From: Escherichia coli
Lineage (GTDB): Bacteria > Pseudomonadota > Gammaproteobacteria > Enterobacterales > Enterobacteriaceae
Assembly (NCBI RefSeq): GCF_003334385.1
Contig: NZ_QOWN01000085.1
Direction: 5' to 3' (one strand)
Length of the DNA stretch: 4,444 nucleotides
Shown here: one piece after another, positions 298 to 4,270 of the stretch
Layout of the letters: each line of letters starts with the position of its first letter
How positions within the stretch are numbered: position 1 is the stretch's first letter
Translations under genes and position numbers: made by a program
The notes under the pieces: generated by a model
Database searches by the model: none
The model's input: the letters and a program-made list of their open reading frames with translations, nothing else
Told to the model about the DNA's origin: nothing

Positions 298-1098
298 ATG
301 ACCACTATTACCAAAGAACGTATTGAATTGTTCATTAAAAATCCGCTTGAAAACGGGCTTACTCGTGGCGAACAAATGGAACTGGCACGAATTGCACTGG
401 CATCACTGGAACGCGAACAGATTCGCCACGAGCATGCCAAATGGTCTGACTCCACATTTGGCTGCGTTGGCCCCATTGGTCCACTGAAACACCTCTCAAA
501 AGAGGCACTGGAAGCCGCAGCCGAACCAGACGATCTTAGCGAGTGGGCTGATATGCAGTTTCTGTTGTGGGATGCACAGCGCCGTGCTGGCATCAGCGAT
601 GCTGAAATTACCGCTGCTATGGAAGATAAATTGAAGATCAACATGGAGCGCCAGTGGCCTGAGCCAAAAGATGGTGAGCCTCGCTTGCACATTAAAGAAC
701 CCGGCAACTCTCCGGTAATTCCGGATGGTTTATCCACGGTATGCGCTGAGGCTTATCAGGTTGTAGGAGTTATGGCAGATGCGCTTGGTGTATTCGGTGA
801 TGCAGCAGTACAGAAAGTTCTGGATAACCTGTCACAGCAAAAACTTGTTCACAGAGATGTGCTGCCGTTCTCGCTTCCGGTAACTCCGGATGGTTGGATA
901 AGCTGTAGTGAGCGAATGCCGGATGATGGTCAGCACGTAATTATTTTATGTGATGGCGCATTCGTTCTTTATGCGCAATATCGAGACGGTGAGTTTTTTG
1001 ATGTAGTCCGTAATGGTGATGAATTTTTCGAAACACAGAGCCGCAATGTAACCGACTGGATGCCGTTACCAGAACCGCCGCAGGAGGTGCGCCAATGA
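298..1098 (+). CDS. prophage protein with a MazG-like NTP pyrophosphohydrolase-type N-terminus (DUF550-like) and a DUF551-like C-terminus
   Basis: This is a 266-aa ORF with ATG at 298 and a GGTG-type SD upstream. The N-terminal half has an all-alpha MazG-like pattern (EHAKWSD...GPIGPLKHLSKEALEAAAE...EWADMQFLLWDAQRRAGIS...KLKINMERQWPEP). The C-terminus (DGWISCSERMPDDGQHVIILCDG...VTDWMPLPEPP) matches the DUF551 signature as I remember it. The stop overlaps the next start as ATGA. Confidence 0.8.
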   Translation: MTTITKERIELFIKNPLENGLTRGEQMELARIALASLEREQIRHEHAKWSDSTFGCVGPIGPLKHLSKEALEAAAEPDDLSEWADMQFLLWDAQRRAGISDAEITAAMEDKLKINMERQWPEPKDGEPRLHIKEPGNSPVIPDGLSTVCAEAYQVVGVMADALGVFGDAAVQKVLDNLSQQKLVHRDVLPFSLPVTPDGWISCSERMPDDGQHVIILCDGAFVLYAQYRDGEFFDVVRNGDEFFETQSRNVTDWMPLPEPPQEVRQ

Positions 1099-1178
1099 TC
1101 TGGCCTGAAGCATTTGCAATTACAGGCGTTGCTATGGCTATCGCTTTTTTAGTATATGTTATTTGTCGGTGTGGGTAA
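1095..1178 (+). CDS. small hydrophobic peptide, 27 aa (MIWPEAFAITGVAMAIAFLVYVICRCG), putative single-pass membrane micro-protein
   Basis: A strong SD AGGAGG (1083-1088) lies 6 nt upstream of ATG 1095, and the start overlaps the upstream stop (ATGA at 1095-1098). The peptide has one hydrophobic helix-length segment and a C-terminal CRCG. The small size makes this uncertain. Confidence 0.45.
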   Translation: MIWPEAFAITGVAMAIAFLVYVICRCG

Positions 1179-1213
1179 AAGCGTTCGCCGGGATTAACAC
1201 CAAAGGAGGGAAT

Positions 1214-1318
1214 GTGTCGGATGATATCTCACTGGCAATGGAAGGTGCGCTGGCTGTTATTGCTGTTGTGGGTGTTTACTGCCTGGTTGTGTTTTTGATG
1301 GATCGACTAGGGAACTGA
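1214..1318 (+). CDS. small hydrophobic peptide, 34 aa from a GTG start (VSDDISLAMEGALAVIAVVGVYCLVVFLMDRLGN); an overlapping alternative is a 29-aa ATG-start frame at 1212..1301
   Basis: SD AAGGAGG at 1203-1209 is followed by GTG at 1214 (4-nt spacing) or ATG at 1212 (2-nt spacing). Both frames encode a hydrophobic transmembrane-like peptide. The frame and start are ambiguous. Confidence 0.35.
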   Translation: MSDDISLAMEGALAVIAVVGVYCLVVFLMDRLGN

Positions 1319-1326
1319 ATTCATTA

Positions 1327-1348
1327 CGATATGGGAATTCCCATATCG
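1327..1348. repeat. perfect 22-bp palindrome CGATATGGGAATTCCCATATCG centred on an EcoRI site
   Basis: The sequence is identical to its reverse complement across 22/22 positions. It lies between the micro-ORFs and the predicted hok promoter, and no T-tract follows it, so it is not a typical intrinsic terminator. Confidence 0.7.
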
Positions 1349-1360
1349 GGTAAAAACGGT

Positions 1361-1388
1361 TTGCGGTAAAGCGAGAGTTAAGTAGAAT
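1361..1388 (+). promoter_or_regulatory. candidate sigma70 promoter for the hok transcript (-35 TTGCGG 1361-1366, 16-bp spacer, -10 TAGAAT 1383-1388)
   Basis: The hexamers were read by eye. They are positioned a few nt upstream of the conserved hok-mRNA 5' element that begins near 1391. Confidence 0.35.
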
Positions 1389-1390
1389 TG

Positions 1391-1442
1391 CTGCGGGTGC
1401 TTGAGGCTGTCTGCCTCGGGCATGCCACCGTAAGGCAGACAG
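1391..1442 (+). promoter_or_regulatory. hok mRNA 5' leader elements: a tac-like 5' segment (1391-1406) and a 9-bp stem (1407-1415 / 1434-1442) with an 18-nt loop
   Basis: CTGTCTGCC at 1407-1415 is perfectly complementary to GGCAGACAG at 1434-1442. Segment 1392-1406 is complementary to 1769-1784 near the 3' end, pairing 15 bp with a single bulge. This matches the architecture of plasmid R1 hok mRNA (GCTTGAGGCTTTCTGCC...GGCAGAAAG) as I recall it. Confidence 0.5.
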
Positions 1443-3225: not shown

Positions 3226-3588
3226 ATGCTCATAGATTTGGTTTTACCTTACCCGCCGACGGTGAACACTTACTGGCGACGCCGTGGCAGCACATATTTT
3301 GTATCAAAAGCCGGGGAGCGTTATCGCCGGGCAGTGGTGCTTATTGTTCGCCAGCAGCGACTGAAATTAAGCCTGTCCGGACGGCTGGCAATAAAAATTA
3401 TTGCAGAGCCACCGGATAAGCGTCGTCGTGACCTGGACAATATTCTGAAAGCACCACTGGATGCGCTGACGCACGTGGGGTTGTTAATGGACGATGAGCA
3501 GTTTGATGAAATCAATATTGTACGTGGCCAGCCAGTATCTGGTGGACGGCTGGAGATAAGAATTACAGAGGTGGGTGTGCATGAATAA
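3226..3588 (+). CDS. rusA: RusA-family Holliday junction resolvase, 120 aa
   Basis: The RBS AAGAGG (3214-3219) precedes the ATG at 3226. The protein carries the conserved RusA core (YPPTVNTYW near the N-terminus, acidic catalytic cluster DKRRRDLDNILKAPLDAL...LMDDEQF, C-terminal GGRLEIRITE), which aligns to E. coli RusA from memory. Confidence 0.88.
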   Translation: MLIDLVLPYPPTVNTYWRRRGSTYFVSKAGERYRRAVVLIVRQQRLKLSLSGRLAIKIIAEPPDKRRRDLDNILKAPLDALTHVGLLMDDEQFDEINIVRGQPVSGGRLEIRITEVGVHE

Positions 3589-4270
3589 CCAGTATTTACA
3601 GTTTGTTCGTGAGCAACTCATGATTGCCACTGCAGATCTCAGTGGGTCGACAAAATGCCAGCTGGAAGCCTGGCAGGAAAATGCCCTGTTCGATACAGGG
3701 CGTTACAGACGCAAAAAAATTCGTTACCGCGATGAGGTAACCGGAAAAATGATCACGCGGGATAATCCCCCGATCCAGGGTAAACAATCACTGGCGAAAG
3801 GCTCATCAATTGCGCTGGTCAGTCCTGTTGAGTTTGCAACATCATCGTGGCGGCGTGCCGTTCTGGAACTGGAAGAACATCAGAAGGCGTGGTTGTTGTG
3901 GTGTTATGGCGGAAACATTTGCTGGGAGCATCAGATCGCGATAACGCAGTGGGTGTGGAGTGAATTTAAAACTCAGTCCGGCTCCAGAAAAATTGCAGTG
4001 AAAACGCTGGAGCGTGTGAAGAAGTTGATCTGGCTGGCGGCACAGGATGTCAGAGGATGGGTTACCGGGTGTGAGGTCTACCAGAGACAGGAGCTTGCCA
4101 GACTGTGTGGAGTTAAGCCTGATAACTGGAGCCATAATTATGCGAACTACTGGCGTGAGATGTGCGATATTTTTAAGCGCCTCGATAGAGAATCCTTGAT
4201 TTGCTCCGTGAAAATAAGAGCGCAACAAAAAGCGACCTTTTCACGACGAGATATTGCAAAAGTCAATTAA
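3581..4270 (+). CDS. putative late-gene antiterminator (Q-like, QuuQ-type), 229 aa
   Basis: ATG 3581 follows GAGGTGG (3568-3574) and overlaps the rusA stop by 8 nt; the ORF track's GTG at 3575 is 2 codons upstream. Its position immediately after rusA and before an intergenic promoter-plus-terminator region is the canonical Q location in lambdoid phages. I cannot confirm the family by motif from memory. Confidence 0.5.
   Translation: MNNQYLQFVREQLMIATADLSGSTKCQLEAWQENALFDTGRYRRKKIRYRDEVTGKMITRDNPPIQGKQSLAKGSSIALVSPVEFATSSWRRAVLELEEHQKAWLLWCYGGNICWEHQIAITQWVWSEFKTQSGSRKIAVKTLERVKKLIWLAAQDVRGWVTGCEVYQRQELARLCGVKPDNWSHNYANYWREMCDIFKRLDRESLICSVKIRAQQKATFSRRDIAKVN

Follow-up and report, generated by a model that had tools for sequence, protein, structure and literature searches.

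Two probable single-helix membrane micro-protein genes upstream of hok/sok in a lambdoid prophage of Escherichia coli

In a contig of E. coli (NZ_QOWN01000085.1, assembly GCF_003334385.1), two very short hydrophobic reading frames, introduced here as ORF1 and ORF2, lie in tandem between a larger gene and a hok/sok cassette. This raises the question if they are genes at all and, if so, whether their translation depends on the gene upstream and whether they have anything to do with Hok. An earlier note on the same 4,444 nucleotides (referred to as the window) had read them as two membrane micro-proteins, both translationally coupled to the upstream gene and conceivably acting as toxins, holin-like modulators or regulators of membrane proteins. 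According to our analysis, both are real genes of a lambdoid prophage that probably encode single-helix membrane micro-proteins, ORF1 probably being coupled to its upstream neighbour and ORF2 being translated separately.

Locus and coding potential of the two frames

The features of the locus are as follows:

298–1098, plus strand: upstream gene with PF04447 and PF04448 domains, 266 aa (list of open reading frames and Pfam)
1082–1087, plus strand: SD of ORF1, AGGAGG, within the last codons of the upstream gene (read from the sequence)
1095–1178, plus strand: ORF1, 27 aa, MIWPEAFAITGVAMAIAFLVYVICRCG, member of the 'WPEAF' single-helix family
1173–1183, plus strand: left copy of an imperfect direct repeat, GGGTAAAAGCG, pairing with 1348–1358
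1204–1209, plus strand: SD of ORF2, AGGAGG, 4 nt before the GTG at 1214 (read from the sequence)
1214–1318, plus strand: ORF2, 34 aa, (M)SDDISLAMEGALAVIAVVGVYCLVVFLMDRLGN, with GTG start and TGA stop
1327–1348, no strand assigned: perfect palindrome of 22 nt, CGATATGGGAATTCCCATATCG, immediately 3' of ORF2
1348–1358, plus strand: right copy of the direct repeat, GGGTAAAAACG, equal to the sequence directly 3' of ORF1 in phage 933W
1395–1719, plus strand: hok/sok cassette (Rfam RF01794, hokD CDS), a neighbour separate from the micro-ORFs

In the upstream gene, Pfam recognised the dATP/dGTP pyrophosphohydrolase family PF04447, formerly DUF550 (E=9.8e-42), and also DUF551 (PF04448, E=2.9e-20). Within the downstream cassette, sok (117.6 bits) covers 1395–1569, mok 1507–1719 and hok 1564–1719. 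The genes rusA and Q are found at 3226–4270, downstream of both micro-ORFs. ORF1 and ORF2 belong to the nin region of a lambdoid prophage, i.e. the stretch between replication gene P and antiterminator gene Q; in other phages, ORF1 adjoins xis/int. Each of the two frames is indeed preceded by an SD, as had been described. A search of complete E. coli genomes gave 1,824 places in 858 of them.

The coding potential of ORF1 was assessed on 62 distinct nucleotide versions, using codons 8–23, the part left free by the search pattern. On a tree, substitution events at codon positions 1, 2 and 3 numbered 40, 27 and 85. Codon changes in the ORF1 frame comprised 71 synonymous and 68 non-synonymous ones vs ratios of 16:116 and 16:112 in the other two frames, and G11 is invariant, yet encoded by all four codons. 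Pairwise dN/dS was 0.40 in frame vs 0.84 and 2.1 in the other frames, a value that signifies only moderate constraint on the helix. For ORF2, dN/dS was 0.185 in the frame beginning at 1214 vs 1.08 and 2.4 in the other frames, and all 31 nucleotide-level homologues in the fetched loci are intact. Judged from these substitution patterns, purifying selection acts in exactly the ORF1 and ORF2 frames. ORF1 spans 27 codons in 133 of the 137 enteric copies, the others having 24, 25 or 29 codons and still being open; these length statistics are partly biased because the collection pattern fixed the first seven and last four codons of most copies, a bias that is reduced, though not removed, by a DUF551-anchored scan and a scan with the N-terminus only. 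The earlier note had named loss of the frames in homologous prophages as evidence against them; they have been kept there, and the coding-pattern substitutions together with the fixed lengths bear out its claim of genuine micro-protein genes.

That both frames are chance ORFs, conserved on account of a DNA or RNA element and not of a protein, appears extremely improbable to us. Short hydrophobic ORFs do arise readily, and antisense frame rc1 of ORF1 has a dN/dS of 0.29, below the 0.40 of the sense frame, which shows the limits of such statistics on 48 nt (in the ORF list of the window, none on the antisense strand across 1095–1178 reaches 20 aa). However, substitutions are dominated by the third position in exactly one sense frame, the lengths are fixed at 27 and 34 codons, and the amino-acid motif of ORF1 persists at just 55–65% identity, including in hosts with 58–61% GC. 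A ribosome-profiling signal has also been listed for ORF2 (see below), and the predicted RNA structure of 1125–1260 did not exceed that of shuffled controls (z=0.30). With this z-score, there is likewise no sign that the SD of ORF2 is masked.

It has to be noted that individual copies of the two genes may be decaying, since the alleles in the window are slightly derived (W26C relative to the CRWG consensus in ORF1, and the GTG start of ORF2) and the copy in Sakai prophage Sp6 carries an Asp within the helix. The GTG is considered derived because most relatives have an ATG at position 1214.

Translation and mobility of ORF2

The GTG of ORF2 lies 35 nt past the stop of ORF1. While the sizes of 27 and 34 aa given in the earlier note could be confirmed, the alternative of 29 aa offered there for the second ORF, starting from an ATG at 1212, corresponds to a non-conserved frame. 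This frame (28 aa) was rejected: most relatives have ATA in place of its ATG, which stands only 2 nt from the SD, and the dN/dS of the frame is ~1.1. Divergent ORF2 homologues (47–50% identity) are likewise 34 codons long and occupy the corresponding position, between ORF1 and hok; in this divergent type a stop codon directly precedes the 34-codon ORF. The range of ORF2 is restricted to E. coli. The gene corresponds to WP_001278450.1, a hypothetical protein predicted by PGAP, and to ECs_5710 of strain Sakai.

Ribosome profiling of an uninduced Sakai culture in LB detected ORF2 as XECs145 (Hücker 2017, PMC5597208). The entries of that study for XECs145 give a translatome RPKM of 346 and a ribosome-coverage value of 4.35, which is among the higher values in the table rows examined, with 99% of the ORF covered; PredictProtein places the product in the inner membrane with one transmembrane helix (PMC5597208). 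As listed there, the last 34 residues of XECs145 equal the ATG-start form of ORF2, and the gene resides in prophage Sp6, where the order of genes is identical. In NC_002695.2, the start codons of the Sp6 copies are located at 1550843 (ORF1) and 1550962 (ORF2). XECs145 differs in its 5' boundary: its start was placed at a non-canonical ATA within the 3' end of ORF1, which adds 20 codons. Because its interval thus takes in 24 nt from the end of ORF1 in addition to ORF2, and because Sakai has several near-identical prophage copies, the assignment of reads is uncertain. By comparison of homologues, the conserved unit of XECs145 is the 34-codon ORF2. At the level of the entries considered here, translation of the ORF2 region is shown, including in uninduced lysogen cultures. 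ORF1, at 84 bp, is shorter than the 93 bp that the Sakai study (PMC5597208) set as its lower limit, and the EDL933 translatome supplements contain neither ORF1 nor ORF2.

According to our proposal, ORF2 would be a separate, E. coli-restricted membrane micro-protein of 34 aa that uses its own ribosome-binding site. It is carried by an inserted module of ~175 bp that separates ORF1 from the hok promoter. As an alignment with 933W showed, 933W-type loci lack this module, which in the window is flanked by the two copies of the imperfect direct repeat. The palindrome at 1327–1348 can form a 9-bp hairpin (fold z=-2.5) and is absent from the divergent ORF2 type; as it is not followed by a U-tract, it is not an intrinsic terminator.

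These properties also bear on a different reading, in which ORF2 is a moron-type lysogenic-conversion gene, transcribed independently, outside the early lytic programme, and of benefit to the host, e.g. through phage exclusion. A bracketed module that 933W-type loci lack, an SD of its own, a hairpin past the stop and, in the rows examined, one of the higher ribosome-coverage values in uninduced Sakai would all suit such a gene. On the other hand, no sigma-70-like promoter was found on the plus strand of 800–1900 and no intrinsic terminator in the surroundings of ORF1 and ORF2, the hairpin included. The same profiling signal could moreover stem from spontaneous induction in some cells or from read-through, and mapping in Sakai is complicated by the multiple copies. 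We regard a moron as possible, though rather doubtful, and keep to ORF2 as a separately translated gene of the nin region.

The ORF1 junction and its family

The ATG of ORF1 (1095–1097) overlaps the TGA (1096–1098) of the 266-aa upstream ORF in the sequence ATGA, and the ORF1 stop is a TAA ending at 1178. The SD, 7 nt before the ATG, is located inside the upstream coding sequence, as a stop/start overlap is defined. All 137 enteric copies have the ATGA with an in-frame upstream TGA. ORF1 copies nevertheless sit behind at least six unrelated C-termini of upstream genes: PLPEPPQEV.. (DUF551), RNGLISxEDxLR, NDLKNIEQEVN., RAAMLKKKGMNQ, TVPDLLPLENNK and IGQAVWRLEARQ. In most junction variants, a purine-rich block (GGAGG, AGGTG or GGAGGA) occupies the same position. 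The overlap is also present in 933W, BP-4795, Stx2a_WGPS2, the virulent phage Av-05 and a plasmid. Distant metagenomic members of the family show 4-nt overlaps at both their 5' and 3' ends. There are also distant members that start 3–5 nt past the upstream stop, without overlap.

A ribosome that ends the upstream gene at the TGA would restart at the ATG, and the AGGAGG 7 nt upstream would aid this restart. From the layout of the junction we infer that ORF1 is translated via termination-reinitiation at the overlap; its output would therefore track translation of the upstream early gene in timing and amount. The coupling that had been proposed for both micro-ORFs can thus be maintained for ORF1 but not, in the strict sense, for ORF2 with its 35-nt gap and own SD. 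Nor is it specific to the DUF550/DUF551 gene, given the variety of upstream C-termini. ORF1 behaves like a portable 'junction + micro-gene' cassette, which recombination places behind various early genes.

Alternatively, ORF1 could serve as a C-terminal membrane anchor, joined to the upstream protein by -1 ribosomal frameshifting and not made alone. Relative to the upstream gene, whose stop it overlaps, ORF1 does lie in the -1 frame, and two database proteins fuse an Ea22-like protein in frame with ORF1. One of these fusions, which we looked up, occurs on a single short contig. Furthermore, the junctions differ (GCGCCAATGA, GAATCAATGA, TTTACGATGA) and offer no slippery heptamer, the distant members beginning past the upstream stop have no overlap at all, and in 137 of 137 junctions an ATG follows an SD-like block at the right distance. 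Frameshifting is hence a highly implausible explanation, and reinitiation remains the preferred one.

Members of the ORF1 family share the layout M-x-W-P-E/D-A-F-x-x-x-G, one helix and a basic tail. They are present in lambdoid prophages, plasmids of ~95 kb, virulent Vequintavirinae and alphaproteobacterial prophages, with 93 phage records and 181 plasmids as carriers. The ORF1 profile matches 73 clusters (50% identity), and members were identified in genomes of Nitratireductor, Sphingobium, Rhizobium and Izhakiella. Among species-representative genomes, the full-length ORF1 pattern had no match, and a looser N-terminal pattern had eight, of which the one in Streptomyces looks like chance. ORF1 is unannotated in all RefSeq, GenBank phage and plasmid records examined. 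Protein searches with padded database versions of 45 and 47 aa yielded solely entries named 'hypothetical protein', which belong to E. coli and Salmonella. Neither ORF1 nor ORF2 gave a significant match to Pfam, NCBIfam, PADLOC or PDB sequences, and the only PHROGs match of ORF1 is a weak one to a family of unknown function (phrog_38566, E=0.0035). Literature searches for strings of either peptide or for WP_001278450 returned no match, and a review of phage small proteins makes no mention of such peptides. The ORF1 family is a widespread, almost never annotated phage family. The earlier expectation that annotation misses such genes applies to ORF1 but not to ORF2, which is known as WP_001278450.1, ECs_5710 and XECs145. 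Clustering of ORF1 with 121-aa DUF551 proteins turned out to be an artefact; there is no fusion, and these proteins do not contain ORF1.

Membrane helix, Hok neighbourhood and possible roles

For both micro-proteins, Hessa and Kyte-Doolittle scales predict a single segment of bilayer length with short polar tails; the best hydrophobic segment of 17–19 residues has a Hessa sum of -1.8 in ORF1 and -3.0 in ORF2. AlphaFold2 models the ORF1 family as a single 24-residue helix from W3 to W26 (pLDDT 91.8). This agrees with the original description of each ORF as little more than one predicted transmembrane helix. ORF1 would insert into the inner membrane with its acidic N-terminus (MxWPE) outside and its basic C-terminus (CRWG or CRCG) inside. 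The cysteines of ORF1 are C24 and C26, that of ORF2 is C23. The invariant residues W3, P4, A6, F7 and G11, together with the small residues at positions 13, 15 and 17, may form an N-terminal face packing against another membrane helix, either one of its own kind or one belonging to a membrane protein of the host or the phage. Insertion, topology and partner binding are predictions. Paralogy of ORF1 and ORF2, considered in view of the Y..C near the helix end of both, was unsupported (34% over 29 residues, E=9.8).

Are one or both micro-proteins membrane toxins, i.e. type-I-like or Hok-like pore formers, or else modulators of Hok? Their size and lone hydrophobic helix resemble small membrane toxins. 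Hok/Gef proteins (PF01848) are likewise small, phage- or plasmid-borne, equipped with a single transmembrane helix and, in the window, adjacent. The hok/sok cassette immediately follows ORF2 in 22 of 29 copies, and one assembly has an in-frame ORF1::Hok chimera. For ORF1, hok comes directly next in ~53 of 131 copies (~40%); in the others, ORF1 is followed by DUF4222/xis/int or other genes. With hok absent near most copies, ORF1 is not defined by this adjacency, which the earlier note had highlighted. On the minus strand, a sigma-70-like site (1179–1151) could yield an antisense RNA over ORF1, but one such site was found vs 1.1 expected by chance, and divergent copies, compared by eye, do not conserve it. 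Over the window, Rfam detected sok alone, which is hok's own antisense RNA, and none for the micro-ORFs.

A Pfam scan of ORF2 and of a 45-mer containing ORF1 gave no HOK_GEF match, in line with the lack of matches to other Pfam, NCBIfam and PADLOC families. Unlike Hok/Gef proteins, the micro-proteins have no periplasmic Cys-containing domain, and their charge layout, with an acidic N- and a basic C-terminus, is the reverse of that of Hok. Tight translational repression is typical of type I toxins, and translation of Hok depends on mok and is repressed by Sok; ORF1, in contrast, has a strong SD and is coupled to an early gene. ORF2, as far as the profiling entries go, is well translated in growing uninduced cultures, which would not be expected of a potent toxin. 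A role as toxin or Hok modulator thus seems unlikely to us. The suggestion of a holin-like role found no support either, since there is no family match and neither ORF has the placement of a late lysis cassette, beside an endolysin gene and downstream of Q; the locus lies upstream of Q, apart from the lysis cassette.

AcrZ, MgtS, MgrB, KdpF and CydX are small single-pass inner-membrane proteins that bind larger membrane proteins. Likened to this class from general knowledge only, ORF1 and ORF2 share with it a length below 50 aa, little beyond one hydrophobic helix, very short tails, packing motifs of small residues within the helix and the tendency to be missed by annotation; ORF2, like many members, was found via ribosome profiling. 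They differ from the class in being phage-borne and in having no Pfam, NCBIfam or PDB match, and ORF1 in addition has its invariant N-terminal WPEAF..G motif and the obligate stop/start overlap. With the accessory genes of the exo-xis/ea and nin regions (Ea22, EaA, DUF551, DUF4222) they have in common the same operons, mosaic swapping of modules and the character of non-essential early genes, whose functions are mostly unknown. However, Ea22, EaA, DUF551 and DUF4222 are soluble proteins of 60–300 aa belonging to Pfam families, whereas ORF1 is a 27-aa predicted membrane peptide outside any family.

A more far-reaching proposal, which we put forward only tentatively, is that WPEAF constitutes an undescribed phage family of Alpha- and Gammaproteobacteria that moves as a 'coupling junction + 27-codon gene' cassette and whose invariant, periplasm-proximal W-P-E-A-F..G face binds a specific conserved inner-membrane protein of the host, with ORF2 as a lysogen-expressed companion that evolved beside hok. 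If true, binding of WPEAF could keep competing phages from delivering their DNA, or it could redirect a transporter or the divisome at an early stage of infection.

Neither the ORF1 nor the ORF2 result alters established concepts, and we consider their importance moderate. The ORF1 family exposes an annotation gap in medically important Stx phages (933W, VT2-Sakai) as well as in prophages of distant Proteobacteria, and the invariant seven-residue N-terminal motif provides the small-protein field with a clear mutational target. Being always ATGA-coupled in enteric copies, whatever the upstream gene, ORF1 is a natural example of a portable translational-coupling cassette, usable for termination-reinitiation tests and for better gene finders for very short genes. 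In the case of ORF2, the true start and frame of the ribosome-profiling match are now fixed, and selection on this frame has been shown.

Prophage setting of the two micro-ORFs

Window positions 1000-1400 are 100% identical to prophages of six complete E. coli genomes. Matches occur in 858 of 5,426 genomes, most of those besides the six at 90-99% identity. In JE86-ST05, an identical genome, replication protein P is followed by DUF1627, DUF4406, DUF4752, Ea22-like and DUF551 genes, and these by a 34-aa hypothetical protein, hokD, a further hypothetical protein, DUF968, RusA and antiterminator Q, a gene order that places the micro-ORFs in the nin region of a lambdoid prophage. The features of the locus are:

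298-1098, upstream gene, 266 aa, Pfam PF04447 dATP/dGTP pyrophosphohydrolase (formerly DUF550) plus DUF551
1095-1178 (+), ORF1, 27 aa; ATG overlapping the upstream TGA as ATGA, AGGAGG 7 nt upstream
1214-1318 (+), ORF2, 34 aa; GTG start, AGGAGG 4 nt upstream
1327-1348, perfect 22-nt palindrome CGATATGGGAATTCCCATATCG with an EcoRI site at its centre; lies 3' of the ORF2 stop and 5' of the hok promoter
1395-1569, sok/hok element (Rfam, 117.6 bits)

In JE86-ST05, PGAP splits the intact 266-aa ORF (L001 3191-4099) into two partial pseudogenes, and several genes nearby are flagged as frameshifted or partial; this may reflect prophage decay or a pipeline confused by the fused pyrophosphohydrolase-DUF551 architecture. 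Between hok and the DUF968 gene, an ORF with a TTG start (1806-2165) is open for 119 aa, where PGAP calls a 92-aa hypothetical protein (1887-2165).

Selection on ORF1 and probable coupling to the upstream gene

Each micro-ORF has one hydrophobic window of 17-19 residues (Hessa sum -1.8 for ORF1 and -3.0 for ORF2), in agreement with the earlier note, which had described little more than one transmembrane-like helix apiece. A tblastn search of GenBank phages matched the ORF1 27-mer over its full length, at 55-67% identity, in about 90 records. In Stx2a_WGPS2, 933W, BP-4795 and the virulent Av-05 (Vequintavirinae), the match begins exactly at the ATGA overlap with the preceding gene, comprises exactly 27 codons and is unannotated.

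Further copies were collected with a degenerate pattern in which only codons 1, 3-7 and 24-28 were fixed. The 120 IMG/VR contigs returned, together with loci already in hand, amounted to 127 copies (62 nucleotide sequences, 33 peptide variants), and selection was measured on codons 8-23, the middle left free by the pattern. Site entropy at codon positions 1, 2 and 3 was 0.53, 0.27 and 0.89 in frame, and pairwise dN/dS was 0.40, versus 0.84 and 2.1 in the other two sense frames. Parsimony on a neighbour-joining tree assigned 40, 27 and 85 substitution events to the three in-frame positions, with 71 synonymous to 68 non-synonymous codon changes against 16:116 and 16:112 in the other sense frames. 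G11 is invariant as an amino acid, with all four GGN codons in use. One antisense frame also had a low dN/dS (0.29); in the window, however, no antisense ORF is open at this place. Ascertainment bias was reduced by scans anchored only on the DUF551 C-terminus and only on the N-terminal seven codons. None of 137 copies is frameshifted, and 133 have 27 codons, the exceptions being two that stop two codons early, one 3-codon deletion and one with two extra codons. On this comparative evidence, the ORF1 frame is shown to be under protein-level selection, and a non-coding reading is less well supported.

The window allele is itself derived (W26C, CRCG versus CRWG, 1170-1172), and the copy in Sakai prophage Sp6 (L228 2344-2427) carries A17D, an Asp in mid-helix. 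In some ORF1 variants (P0110, P0112, P0113 and P0116) a 6-nt unit is expanded in frame within the helix (GIAMAMAMAMAV..., GIAVAVAVAV...), so that the transmembrane segment gains 2-8 residues. On the minus strand, a sigma-70-like site (TTTACC-17-TATACT, 1179-1151) is directed antisense through ORF1; its count was not above shuffled controls, and by eye it is unconserved in divergent copies.

The earlier note had coupled the micro-ORFs translationally to the DUF550/DUF551 gene. For ORF1 the arrangement expected of coupling holds: in every enteric copy examined (137/137) the start overlaps an upstream in-frame TGA as ATGA, and because of this overlap codon 2 is limited to A-starting codons (I, N, S, T). 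A purine-rich Shine-Dalgarno-like block lies at constant distance in most junction variants. The partner, however, is not specific, since the upstream proteins have at least six unrelated C-termini (DUF551-type PLPEPPQEV.., RNGLISxEDxLR, NDLKNIEQEVN., RAAMLKKKGMNQ, TVPDLLPLENNK and IGQAVWRLEARQ). Many other genes may follow DUF551 genes in place of ORF1, so the association is not obligatory from the DUF551 side either. Judged from these junctions, the conserved feature of ORF1 is the coupling arrangement, not the DUF551 partner.

Hok/sok lies downstream in about 53 of 131 ORF1 copies, the hok mRNA start often being 45 nt past the ORF1 stop; Hok adjacency, previously singled out, is therefore common and non-specific rather than defining. 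ORF2 follows ORF1 in 29 copies, and in others a DUF4222 gene (4 nt past the stop) or other genes do.

We infer that ORF1 would be synthesized by termination-reinitiation at the upstream stop and inserted with its N-terminus out and its C-terminus in, because the MxWPE end is acidic and the CRWG end basic. Its invariant N-terminal face and small-residue stripe (G11/A13/A15/A17) could pack on another membrane helix, and ORF2 would encode a separate small membrane protein, perhaps one made in the prophage state. Readings of the micro-ORFs as Hok modulators or frameshift anchors have less support than this proposal, as does the suggested membrane toxin or holin-like role, for which no evidence was found.

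Some DUF551 genes in IMG/VR loci are followed, again through a stop/start overlap, by small hydrophobic ORFs of other, unrelated kinds, for example MNKCNALLYAMVIGFGLAAGIRVYITWESLINLAWSAIRG (40 aa), MMPPVKVVIITLVMIVIARIMSGEIGWIW (29 aa) and MDSFAKYTIIDWIAFLQVLLIWFYMAYRSGQW...; this slot seems to gather membrane micro-proteins. One contig of one E. coli assembly (GCA_016679755.1, L237 1501-1635) fuses the first 15 ORF1 codons in frame to the C-terminal part of Hok (MTWPEAFTTVGIAMA joined to LVTRKDLCEVR...), with the coupled ORF1 start and without the mok/sok leader; this chimera may reflect a genuine deletion or an artefact of assembly.

Distribution of the ORF1 family

The common ORF1 variant is carried by 93 phage records and by 181 plasmids; these plasmids are mostly non-mobilizable, about 95 kb in size and from Escherichia, Salmonella and Klebsiella. 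In plasmids, too, the match falls where a DUF551 gene ends. When 1.84 billion representatives were searched with a profile, 73 clusters scored E<=0.001; they retain M-x-W-P-E/D-A-F-x-x-V-G and the hydrophobic helix followed by basic residues, with a variable C-terminus. Metagenomic members (contigs of 55-61% GC) overlap each of their two neighbours by 4 nt. A looser DNA pattern, applied to one genome per species, matched in Nitratireductor, Sphingobium, Rhizobium, Izhakiella and Escherichia, with peptides of 25-29 aa that begin 3-5 nt after the preceding gene ends, in a prophage-like context. From the family alignment, AlphaFold2 predicted one helix, W3-W26 (pLDDT 91.8). ORF1 had no match in Pfam, NCBIfam, PADLOC or PDB and only a weak one in PHROG; a few GenBank submitters named it "hypothetical protein" or "bacteriophage protein". 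The family that ORF1 defines is widespread and essentially undescribed, its micro-proteins being of a known general kind.

Frame, translation and module of ORF2

The earlier claim that such ORFs are missed by annotation is borne out for ORF1 in the phages and the one plasmid record inspected, but not for ORF2, which is WP_001278450.1 (PGAP, 1214-1318) and ECs_5710 in Sakai prophage Sp6. At the 1214 position ATG is the start codon in most relatives, the window GTG being derived; by the same base change the rival ATG at 1212 becomes ATA. Within the main ORF2 type, the 1214 frame has a dN/dS of 0.185, versus 1.08 for the 1212 frame and 2.4 for the third, and the alternative start at 1212 (28 aa, open in the window) is rejected as the wrong frame. 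Among the loci retrieved, each of the 31 nucleotide-level homologues is intact. A second type (MWEVIVLVLKCALAIVAVMAIYCLVIVLMDHLSD, 47-50% identity) likewise has 34 codons and occupies the same place, 3' of ORF1 and ahead of the hok promoter; one of its loci has a stop codon immediately 5' of the ATG. The alignments thus show the ORF2 frame, too, to be under protein-level selection, and both micro-ORFs stand as real genes. Database relatives of ORF2 are from E. coli only, all unnamed proteins.

Among the translated intergenic ORFs of Sakai is XECs145, which ends in the 34 residues of ORF2 and whose interval starts within the ORF1 3' end (Hücker et al. 2017, PMC5597208). In LB, its transcriptome and translatome RPKM were 79 and 346, its ribosome-coverage value 4.35 and its covered fraction 0.99; the corresponding values were 121, 150, 1.14 and 0.84 in BHI, and 73.3, 1.1, 0.01 and 0.37 under BHI stress (PMC5597208). 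The ORF2 region is thus shown to be occupied by ribosomes. XECs145 was predicted to be an inner membrane protein with one transmembrane helix; that paper lists ORFs down to 93 bp, and ORF1, at 84 bp, would therefore go unreported there (PMC5597208).

In 933W, the ORF1 stop runs directly into the hok promoter, where the window has an insert of about 175 bp bearing ORF2. This module is bracketed by an imperfect direct repeat, GGGTAAAAGCG (1173-1183) and GGGTAAAAACG (1348-1358). With its single repeat copy and no ORF2, 933W suggests that the module was gained or lost through recombination at the short repeat. No plus-strand promoter or intrinsic terminator was found around ORF1/ORF2, and no RNA structure masking the ORF2 Shine-Dalgarno sequence. 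The palindrome at 1327-1348 forms a 9-bp hairpin (z=-2.5) without a U-tract; the divergent ORF2 type lacks this palindrome, which could serve as a site of protein binding or RNA processing.
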